Shown here piece after piece: positions 1 through 56,759 of a stretch of 64,000 nucleotides of DNA. How positions within the stretch are numbered: the stretch's first letter is position 1; each line of letters starts with the position of its first letter. The position numbers were made by a program, and so were the translations under genes. This DNA comes from an uncultured Verrucomicrobiae bacterium (GTDB taxonomy: Bacteria; Verrucomicrobiota; Verrucomicrobiia; Chthoniobacterales; JAFAMB01): assembly GCA_963762565.1 (NCBI GenBank), contig CAVXLD010000007.1:320001-384000 (forward strand), written 5' to 3'. The notes beneath the pieces are model-generated. The model saw only the letters and a list, made by a program, of their open reading frames with translations, did no database searches and was not told the DNA's origin.

Positions 1-146
1 ATCATCTACAAAATGTGGACCCATCGAACTCCTTACAACGCCGAGCTCCATCACCGCAATCAACTCCAGCACGGATCTTGGATCTTTCAGCTCAAAGTAA
101 CTTAACCCCTAACCTATTTTTCCCCTTGAAGACCGATAGAAAGTCT
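1..146 (+). mobile_element. Right end of a probable IS110-family element (transposase C-terminus 1..105, end at CT core 145-146)
   Basis: Frame 1 reads IIYKMWTHRTPYNAELHHRNQLQHGSWIFQLKVT*, resembling IS110 transposase C-termini (II.. W....PYD). It is followed by TTGAAGACCGATAGAAAGT-CT and then exactly half of the palindrome CCAGCCCCGAAAG-CT-TTCGGGGCTGG that is intact at 51579-51604. Confidence 0.55.
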
Positions 147-1142
147 TTCGGGGCTGGAATAGGTTAGAAAAGGCATCCCGTCCTGTAGGGACGCTGTGAT
201 CTCTATCCCTGGCTGTGCCTGAGAGCTAACGGCGCCGTTGACCGACTCAATCATACCGTCCCGCTGGGACGGGGCACCTTTTTATACGCACCCCAGGCAG
301 TAAACTGCCTGGCTAGTGCGCCGTGGAACGCGCATCACAGCAGGTGAGAGTCCTGCATTGTTAAACCGTGAAAGAACAAGAAGTACAAAGTAAGGGCGTT
401 GTCGAGAGGCGGGGTCTGAAGCAACCGAGTACGAGACACCTAGTCCGCAACGCAAGTGAACACGATTCGGCAAGGCAAGCTGGTGAGCCTGCTAGCCAAG
501 AGCGAAACCAAGTCCGCCAAGAGCGGAACCAGTGGCATTCACAGAGCACGGGAAAGGATGGCCATTGGAGCTTGTCGGGTGGTTGGTGGTGGAATGGGAG
601 TCGAAGTGATGAGCGGTTAACACGGGAGAACCACGTAGAGAACGAGACTGGCGTTCATTCCGCTGAGAGGGCAAAGAGGGCGGACAAAGAACCAGGCTAC
701 GTGGAAGTCAGAGCGTCCATAGTAGCGAAGAAGCGGGGTAACGCCCGTGGAGCCAAGGGACGTAGGAAGATAGAACGAATCAGGTCAGCCGGAAGGAAGA
801 AAACCCCGTTAGTGATCAACCTCTTGAGAGCTCGATCTATACAAGGGTGGAGAACTCTGTCCCGCGAAGGGAGCACAGAGGAATACCTTCCAGCCAACAC
901 TGATCCATTGCTGGCAGGCTGCCGCAAACGGCAGTCAGACACCGGGGAAAAGCAAGCCCGATGTCGCCGAACCTCGAACTTTCTCGTTGAGGTTCCCAGG
1001 TTCAATTCGGCATGTCAGTCTCACTGTAGACCCTATCGACTGGAGAGCCGGATGCGGGAAAACCGCCTGTCCGGTTCGGAGGGAGGGGCGGCTCCAATAC
1101 AGTCGTCCCTACCCCTATCCTTCATTCAGTCCCTTCGGGACA
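145..1142. repeat. REP-like palindromic element, interrupted by the IS110 end (left arm) and a group II intron (right arm)
   Basis: 145-196 matches the reverse complement of 51544-51592. 249-315 joined to 1119-1142 rebuilds CCAGGCAGTAAACTGCCTGGCTA|CCTTCATTCAGTCCC, matching the reverse complement of 56428-56465. Confidence 0.8.
316..1118 (+). ncRNA. ORF-less group II intron (IIB-like, AGC catalytic triad)
   Basis: 5' end GTGCGCC at 316; domain V GAGCCGGATGCGGGAAAACCGCCTGTCCGGTTC at about 1045-1077; domain VI ending CCCTACCCCTAT at 1118; a typical DII/DIII segment AGTAGCGAAGAAGCGGGGTAACGCCCGTGGAGCCAAGGG; no reverse transcriptase ORF; flanks rejoin into an intact repeat. Confidence 0.9.
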
Positions 1143-56417: not shown

Positions 56418-56759
56418 CCGTCCCGTAGGGACTGAATGATGGTAGCCAGGCAGTTCACTGCCTGGAACCTCCCGCCCAAGACGATACCGTCTCGTAGAGA
56501 CGGTATGATTTAATGGCCCTCCTAATCGTGTTCAGGTCGATTTTTAGCGCTAACGCATGGAGACTGGTATCGGGTTTGGAGGAAATCGAAACGCGAGGCA
56601 ACTCACAAACGCTCGGCAGAACGCGCTTTCGAGCCCGCGTGCCAGCACGATTACGTGACCGTTAACTAATCATACCGTCTCTACGAGACGGTATCGACTT
56701 GGGTGCGGGTTCCAGGCAGTGAACTGCCAGGCTACGATCACTTAGTCCCTACGGGACGG
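56418..56759. repeat. REPIN/MITE-like element: two inverted about 92-nt arms around a about 157-nt spacer
   Basis: 56418-56510 pairs with 56668-56759; each arm holds three hairpins (GTCCC.TAGGGAC, CCAGGCAG..CACTGCCTGG, TACCGTCTC.TAGAGACGGTA). Confidence 0.9.

Follow-up and report, generated by a model that had tools for sequence, protein, structure and literature searches.

Group II introns of class C (IIC) insert just downstream of DNA stem-loops, and the E. rectale intron particle provides a structural account of how such a target is held. As described for this particle (PMC10190682), EBS1 lies at intron nt 184-188, EBS2 is lacking, and the protein, D1d, and D4a jointly hold the DNA stem. 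In the same source the E. rectale intron has a CGC triad in domain V, and its target consists of a stem of about 12 bp, a 4-nt spacer, and a 4-nt IBS1; D4a is presented as a maturase-binding subdomain, and IIC-type introns are characterized as almost wholly protein-dependent for lariat formation. The IIE and IIF introns are described with a 5-nt domain V loop and a clear, covarying EBS2-IBS2 pairing (PMC3753933). Mobility after loss of the intron's own gene has a parallel in T. elongatus, in which TeI3 introns that lack an ORF are reported to derive from one deletion and to be mobilized by the proteins of "driver" introns (Mohr et al. 2010, PMC2882425). PMC4424553 describes bacterial introns without an ORF as rare and gives only homing sites, terminators, and attC sites as target rules. 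A link to REP elements is found in a table on P. putida KT2440, according to which two of nine copies of a group II intron lie at REPs, and the IS110 family and other insertion sequences (ISs) are reported to target REPs as well (Tobes and Pareja 2006, PMC1525189). Our literature search for group II introns in combination with REP, RAYT, or REPIN returned only this table entry, and a search with "Verrucomicrobia" returned nothing relevant. Here we describe a locus that brings these themes together, and we consider it quite probable that it contains an ORF-less, non-autonomous, hairpin-homing group II intron that retrohomed into the head of a RAYT-associated REP by means of a reverse transcriptase (RT) from a sibling intron.

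The stretch of DNA that we analyzed (the window; 64,000 nt, C7:320001-384000) is part of the 6.1-Mb genome assembly of a soil bacterium, which comprises 15 contigs and is 93.7% complete (G000, hereafter the host genome). On its plus strand, to which all coordinates refer unless stated otherwise, the window contains an ORF-less group II intron of 803 nt at 316..1118. The assignment is based on the intron termini, an Rfam match, a second copy, and the lack of an RT, and it bears out the original prediction, which had recognized an intron with these boundaries from its GUGCG start and domains V and VI. The 5′ end reads GTGCG (GUGCG in the RNA) at 316-320 and the 3′ end reads ...CCCCTAT, with the last base at 1118 (UAU at 1116-1118), in agreement with the 5′ GUGYG and 3′ AY termini of group II ribozymes. 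The Rfam model of domains V and VI (RF00029; gathering cut-off of 40 bits) matches 1043-1118 with 54.8 bits (E 2.4e-9) over the full model, positions 1-77, and the match stops at the final intron base. The Rfam model of domains I to IV (RF02003; cut-off of 49) gives a sub-threshold match of 31.1 bits at 338-455 of the window intron, and the RT-bearing copy in the host genome has no match to the Rfam D1-D4 models.

Based on the Rfam alignment and folding, domain V occupies 1045..1077 (33 nt) and has the AGC triad that had been predicted, a 2-nt bulge, and a 5-nt terminal loop, and domain VI occupies 1078..1118; it terminates in ...UAU, and its bulged A lies 8 nt from the 3′ end. Domains II and III extend over approximately 612..700, with edges placed by a single-sequence fold and by alignment to relatives. 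Domain IV contains the D4a hairpin at 713..766, which we discuss below, and its remaining part (767..1040) is structured filler without a remnant of RT coding sequence, as judged by tblastn and folding. The original prediction had allowed about 270 nt between domains III and V; this is roughly right, as the fold gives approximately 335 nt for domain IV. Its further claims that the intron lacks an RT and is non-autonomous agree with our results: no RT ORF is present in the 803 nt, and tblastn with the family RT detects just 22 N-terminal residues (E 0.11). The core ribozyme motifs, namely the GUGCG start, EBS1, the domain V triad and bulge, and the bulged A of domain VI, are all intact.

An intron without an RT could still contain a real gene for a novel protein, given that frame 2 is stop-free from nt 50 to 802, an open frame of 251 codons, and that each of the other two forward frames is interrupted by 12 stops. 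This length is reached by only 1 of 5000 mononucleotide shuffles, and an ORF with a GTG start encodes 268 aa in the window copy and 293 aa in the second one. However, the translation has no Pfam match at E values up to 1, is charged and of low complexity, and overlaps the RNA-constrained domains I to VI. In addition, the longest forward stop-free frames of five other ORF-less relatives span 81-110 codons, and three of the four differences between the two copies fall at first or second codon positions. A protein-coding role of this frame is therefore extremely improbable in our judgment, and we treat the element as an RNA without a gene.

We located EBS1 by covariation with the 5′ exons. In an alignment of 13 family introns from six genomes, the terminal loop directly after the conserved GAGCCUGC pairs with the last 5-6 bases of the intron's own 5′ exon in 12 introns, and the pairing is maintained across five different EBS1 sequences (UAGCC, GUAGG, CCCUGU, GAGUG, and UAGGG). 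The sole exception is the broken RT-bearing copy of the host genome, the EBS1 of which is mismatched to its flank. In the window intron the loop is UAGCCA (TAGCCA in the DNA) at 493..498, corresponding to intron nt 178-183, and is complementary to the final six exon bases; the EBS1-IBS1 pairing comprises 6 bp at this copy and 5 bp at the second copy. The original prediction had put forward this segment and TGGCCA at 559-564 as alternative candidates. The former is EBS1; the latter is rejected, as it lies at a non-homologous position that does not covary. In a larger set of introns fetched with the RT protein, at least five contiguous EBS1 pairs are found at 42 of 56 distinct junction candidates, a number that includes some false anchors that were counted and not dropped, compared with 18 of 1120 control positions. 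A search for EBS2 across nine introns with six target types identified no complementary stretch of at least six bases at a consistent alignment column, which is negative evidence only. Nearly all 3′ exons in the family begin with C, so EBS3 gives no covariation signal.

Domain I (316..611), failure of which to fold had been named as grounds for giving up the prediction, has a well-supported structure. When 21 family members, drawn from several phyla, were folded to a consensus over their first 330 nt, 68 pairs were obtained, 39 of which show compensatory changes, and the domain is closed by a helix between nt 18-23 and nt 291-296 of the intron. Across this alignment 96.2% of the cells in domain I are paired, compared with 38-43% when the partners are slid, and none of 500 shuffles reaches a value as high.

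The sequence that the intron interrupts is a composite repeat. The 5′ exon ends with a hairpin, which we refer to as hairpin B, followed by CTA (293..315); its perfect 8-bp stem encloses a 4-nt loop and ends 3 nt before the intron junction, as had been predicted, and IBS1 (TGGCTA, 310..315) overlaps its 3′ foot. Farther upstream, at 258..275, REP unit 1 consists of a GTCCC..GGGAC-type hairpin followed by a T run, similar to a terminator; it is the upstream part of a composite REP and is found again, ahead of hairpin B, among the 44 copies of the repeat in the host genome. The 3′ exon (1119..1141) begins with the C that is the candidate for IBS3 and continues into REP unit 2, composed of TCATTCA and a GTCCC..GGGAC hairpin. 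When the flanks of the intron are joined by script, the product differs at 2 of 38 positions from an uninterrupted target REP at 56428..56465 (minus strand), and removal of the intron thus restores a near-identical repeat, in line with the earlier proposal. The uninterrupted copy is the left arm of an inverted doublet, and its partner 247 bp away, the right arm at 56712..56749 (plus strand), has six mismatches. The window intron's own REP belongs to a doublet with a truncated sister arm, which is adjoined by a fragment of an IS110-family transposase.

Hairpin B plus CTA is found in the oriented form in 44 copies in the host genome, of which 2 are occupied by the intron and 42 are empty. The GGCTA is kept in all 44 copies, and at the empty sites the 3′ side opens with C in 41 of 42 cases. 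In every copy TAG stands immediately before the palindrome on the complementary strand, and most empty copies have GTAG, the tag by which we name this REP class following PMC3733652. Twenty-eight of the 44 copies are arranged as 14 inverted doublets. A Y1_Tnp (RAYT) gene is enclosed by each of three doublets, the arms of which are separated by 672-684 bp; these three genes are among the best five of the 12 PF01797 matches in the genome. The repeat, originally called "REP-like", is a true RAYT-associated REP, and the intron splits it between CTA and C, inside the complement of the GTAG head.

A second copy of the intron is located 69 kb away, at C7:389586-390388, and differs at 4 of 803 nt (99.5% identity). 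It occupies the identical position of the REP in another copy of the repeat. Both introns are preceded by the hairpin and GGCTA and followed by the same 3′ unit, and both have convergent genes on either side, share the orientation of the upstream gene, and follow a terminator-like hairpin. The surroundings are otherwise distinct: differences are found in the hairpin (both loop and stem), in the upstream REP unit, and in the spacer, and the window copy is flanked by the IS110-family transposase fragment and a Usp gene, the second copy by a LysR gene and an SDR gene. Because the REP flanks and the neighboring genes differ, we conclude that the two copies represent two insertions and not the duplication of one.

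The same landing is seen in relatives. Of 61 genomes searched at the DNA level (the host genome plus 60 relatives), 25 gave matches; among the 36 other genomes of the same family, the number is 19. Two genomes of the same genus (G003 and G004) have intron copies that are 90-94% identical and lie at contig ends; this breaking of contigs is the mark of a repeat. Together these genomes provide seven distinct 5′ junctions, six with the same hairpin and all seven with the GGCTA end, and five 3′ junctions, all of which run on into the REP unit. In a genome of another genus (G022, genus g4), diverged ORF-less introns of 748 and 747 nt, which are only about 70% identical to the window intron in domain I, have the same EBS1 and are found at the same REP position, twice. 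In three genomes from two genera, the landing on the REP is base-exact. The prediction of homing into a multicopy repeat is well supported by the second copy at the same site and by the six further 5′ junctions in the same hairpin; copies in unrelated targets, which had been expected if the prediction were wrong, are not what we found, as the copies in the host genome, G003, and G004 share one target.

The nature of the target raises the question of whether the intron spread as DNA, either by hitch-hiking in a REP or REPIN moved by a RAYT or through recombination or gene conversion among REPs. The RAYT-associated repeat that serves as the target is regarded as mobile in its own right, and the two occupied sites have the same 23 nt as their 3′ flank, which is found exactly in none of the 42 empty sites, with four of them one base off. 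Such a route is difficult to reconcile with the 5′ flanks of the two copies, which differ although the introns themselves differ at only those 4 nt, or with junctions that are base-exact at every copy in three genomes. Moreover, relatives with other EBS1 sequences occupy other hairpins that match them, which copying at the DNA level does not predict. We consider DNA-level spread very unlikely and favor retrohoming as the route by which the copies arrived.

The hairpin in front of the window intron is characteristic of the whole family. The family RT has 428 confirmed relatives in a species-representative collection, from phyla that include Verrucomicrobiota, Acidobacteriota, and Planctomycetota, and some metagenome-assembled genomes (MAGs) contain more than 12 copies of family introns in hairpin repeats of their own. 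At the 44 junctions with a good EBS1 match, which represent 15 EBS1 types, the 30 nt upstream of the junction fold with -8 kcal/mol or less in 38 cases, compared with 143 of 880 random positions from the same loci; these counts are not independent events, as kin share targets, and some of the junction candidates are false anchors that were left in the count. The median upstream energy is -7.4 or lower in every one of the 15 EBS1 types. A strict hairpin detector that requires at least six contiguous pairs finds hairpins at 24 of 56 junctions and at 114 of 1120 control positions, the lower yield being due to stems with one mismatch, which it misses. The target hairpins of the family are of the REP type and mostly lack a T run directly behind them. 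The hunch that the position of the window intron recalls IIC targeting therefore holds family-wide: the RT-intron family as a whole inserts just behind hairpins, like class C.

Outside domains V and VI, the best-conserved segment of the intron is D4a. Intron nt 394-460 are 88-92% identical to relatives, compared with approximately 70% in domain I, and the consensus hairpin of this segment (713..766), which includes one G-C/C-G compensatory pair, is presumed to be the high-affinity maturase-binding site. In RT-bearing relatives the RT begins in this segment, together with its ribosome-binding site, which is where a maturase-binding D4a is usually located; in an ORF-less element its constancy is explicable by RNA function alone. 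Given this conservation of about 90%, it is plausible that an RT acts on the intron in trans, as the original prediction had supposed.

RT-containing relatives, for which a search had been suggested, are present in the host genome, but both of their RTs are broken. In the full-length relative (C7:605990-607903) the ORF is interrupted by stops and contains 10 indels, and a second relative on contig C12 is a frameshifted internal RT fragment without D1, D4a, or D5. We did not identify an intact cognate RT in the 93.7%-complete assembly. The sole intact group II-type RT of the host genome, encoded on contig C11, has 453 aa and is 35-37% identical to the cognate family; we rejected this locus as a sibling intron because it has no recognizable D1-D3 upstream and its domain V scores 39.3 bits, just under the cut-off. 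Since both cognate RT copies are broken, present-day activity in the host genome is doubtful, and its two intron copies may now be stranded.

A stricter reading is that the intron is a dead or stranded remnant that is immobile now, possibly no longer splices, and is decaying in place. The two broken RT genes fit this reading, as does the filling of only 2 of 44 REP sites, with around 40 seemingly suitable sites unoccupied; the strong dependence of IIC-type lariat formation on protein (PMC10190682) points in the same direction. It sits less well with the intact core motifs and with two copies that are 99.5% identical, and the genomes of the same genus hold several more copies at contig ends. 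The incompleteness of the assembly and the intact, though distant, RT on C11 also weaken it. We give the remnant reading a sizeable chance, short of an even one; it concerns the present state of the element only, and the route of arrival that we favor, retrohoming, is not disputed by it.

Relatives illustrate how a gene-less intron and an RT source may coexist. The g4 genome G022 contains, in one genome, ORF-less introns and an intact cognate RT (P0003) of 456 open codons with RVT_1 and GIIM domains and no endonuclease domain. Of the five RT-bearing copies that we read in relatives, this type of integrity is seen in one, and four are broken, one of them by a single in-frame stop. We did not find a close RT-bearing parent of the 803-nt type; the best match is 67% identical over D1-D3, in G055. 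The ORF-less introns of G022 and of G027 (743-749 nt) align end to end at 85-86% with common deletion ends, yet this lineage has three EBS1 variants at three target types. Shared deletion ends combined with three EBS1 variants indicate that the g4 lineage was still moving after the loss of its gene.

Based on these observations, we posit that the intron arrived through retrohoming, by reverse-splicing itself into the RAYT-associated REP at its conserved head. The site would be read by an EBS1-IBS1 pairing of 5-6 bp, UAGCC(A) with (U)GGCUA, to which a one-base EBS3-IBS3 pair with the C of the 3′ exon probably adds. The DNA hairpin that ends 3 nt upstream would be read as well, with no involvement of EBS2, and by analogy with class C we expect that the stem-loop is recognized by the protein. 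Because the intron has no RT, cDNA synthesis must be external: the RT/maturase of a sibling intron may bind the conserved D4a and supply this activity, and probably efficient splicing also. For such an element, the approximately 44 REP copies with GGCTA followed by C would constitute a large stock of harmless landing sites, placed behind terminator-like hairpins between convergent genes.

The system is of interest as a gene-less intron lineage with RAYT-associated REP hairpins as its dedicated landing pad in three genomes of two genera, accompanied by a second gene-less lineage, in g4, in which EBS1 changed after ORF loss. The insertion splits the unit of GTAG and hairpin that is thought to be needed by the RAYT and may thereby disable the REP copy that it occupies. 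With an intron of about 800 nt and a defined DNA target of 40 nt, the system is compact and natural, and suits questions of how a DNA hairpin is read jointly by protein and RNA, how far a maturase reaches to foreign introns, and how layered selfish elements (RAYT/REP, intron, and RT donor) coexist. Since the mechanisms involved are already known, the gain is incremental. More tentatively, and with more doubt than belief, we suggest a joint reading of these data in which Chthoniobacterales hold long-lived lineages of gene-less, hairpin-homing introns specialized on the GTAG head of RAYT-mobilized REPs. These lineages would persist and retarget across genera by acquiring new EBS1 sequences, with only D4a, D5, and D6 constant, and would be part of a lineage that is sister to class C, is widespread, and has a distinct target geometry (IBS1 on the stem foot and an AGC domain V). 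If this reading is true, the intron parasitizes a parasite and in turn relies for its enzyme on a third element, the RT-bearing intron.

Among the systems described, the IIC introns (E. rectale/MarathonRT, GsI-IIC; PMC10190682, PMC4424553) are those that the element resembles in behavior. As far as those accounts describe, both insert just downstream of a DNA stem-loop and lack EBS2, and both have a small domain I and a short EBS1, at intron nt 178-183 here and 184-188 in the E. rectale intron, together with a one-base EBS3, which is a candidate in our case. An RT without an endonuclease domain is another shared feature, found here in the RT-bearing relatives (P0003), the window element itself being proteinless. 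The element differs from the E. rectale IIC intron as described in having an AGC instead of a CGC triad and in its 5-nt domain V loop. Its target geometry also stands apart, with a stem of 7-8 bp, a junction 3-5 nt beyond it, and an IBS1 of 5-6 nt on the stem foot without a spacer, and its targets are REP-type hairpins mostly without a U/T run. The family RT scores highest against the solved IIC structures (6AR1, 192 bits; 7UIM, 179 bits) and lower against LtrA (131 bits), a ranking that has no power to discriminate class since the C11 RT, which is unrelated, orders them identically. The element therefore works like IIC in its behavior, with a triad and target geometry unlike those of solved IIC introns. 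With IIE and IIF introns as described in PMC3753933, it shares a small ribozyme and the 5-nt domain V loop; our search found no EBS2 to compare with theirs.

The TeI3 introns, as reported, resemble the window intron in the deletion of the ORF from domain IV, the retention of the D4a region, and good EBS/IBS matches, and the diversification of EBS after ORF loss has its counterpart in the g4 lineage. RT-bearing relatives are present in the same genome in both systems, those of the host genome having decayed. Unlike the window intron, TeI3 is of the IIB/CL type, with an endonuclease-bearing RT, EBS2, and targets that are not hairpins, and its mobilization in trans was established experimentally, whereas we propose it here by inference. 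With the REP-targeting ISs and the P. putida intron, our element has in common that a mobile element lands on REP palindromes. It is distinguished from those cases, as they are reported, by landing that is base-exact across genomes and genera, brought about by RNA that pairs with the DNA complementary to the GTAG head. The element unites two habits already known from introns and does not represent a new kind.

The RAYT-associated hairpin repeat (REP) that holds the window intron, an 803-nt group II intron lacking a reverse transcriptase (RT) gene (window 316–1118), is one arm of a doublet. The C-terminal fragment of an IS110-family transposase (Transposase_20, E = 4.4e-8; window about 1–105) ends just 5′ of this REP, and the left sister arm of the doublet (window 146–200) keeps the outer hairpin and is missing hairpin B, the hairpin of the 5′ exon, where the IS110 fragment adjoins. 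The arrangement of the sequence suggests that two distinct REP-targeting elements, one of the IS110 family and the other the intron, have struck a single REP doublet. The two occupied REP sites of the genome share an identical 23-nt 3′ flank (window 1119–1141 and C7:390389–390411); this flank has no exact match among the 42 empty REP copies, four of which differ from it by one base. The common flank may mean either that one REP subtype is preferred or that the flanking sequence was co-converted.

Frame 2 of the window intron is free of stop codons for 251 codons (window 365–1117, intron nt 50–802), corresponding to a GTG-started ORF of 268 aa (L001:1553–2359). The other two forward frames contain 12 stops each, and only 1 in 5000 shuffles of the intron produced a frame of this length. 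The frame has no Pfam match, and no comparably long frame is present in the other five ORF-less relatives; we regard it as unexplained and probably not coding.

The same genome carries a full-length RT-bearing relative of 1914 nt (C7:605990–607903; L009:291–2204), the ORF of which has 10 indels. Its EBS1, the loop predicted to pair with the end of the 5′ exon, reads CUCUUA and does not match its own 5′ exon; a complementary stretch of 7–8 nt sits 17–24 nt upstream. The insertion is possibly ectopic or rearranged. An internal, frameshifted fragment of a cognate-family RT (C12:184002–185105), sharing at most 74% identity with the intact RT of the related genome G022 (P0003), is accompanied by no D1, D4a or D5. 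An intact group II-type RT/maturase of 453 aa is encoded on C11 of the genome that holds the window (224500–226000; L011:501–2000), followed 3′ by a D5-like element scoring 39.3 bits, just below the cut-off, and a long D6. No recognizable D1–D3 lies upstream, and the locus is either a 5′-truncated intron or a free-standing RT.

Among related genomes, the RT gene of L063 (G017:C12) is open except for one in-frame stop (intron nt 1488–1490; ..WP*KK..) at a position where relatives have arginine; of the five RT-bearing copies compared, one carries this stop. Two ORF-less introns of 749 nt in G027 (L060 and L026), with EBS1 CCCUGU, occupy a different repeat that ends in GGCTACAGGG and is followed by a 3′ motif common to both. 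One Verrucomicrobiae MAG contains more than a dozen RT-bearing copies (L097–L104, L107–L109, L115, L116 and L122), 86–89% identical to P0003. Each is inserted 3 nt past another repeated hairpin, both arms of which covary from copy to copy, and their EBS1, UAAGUG, pairs with the six exon-end bases in most copies.
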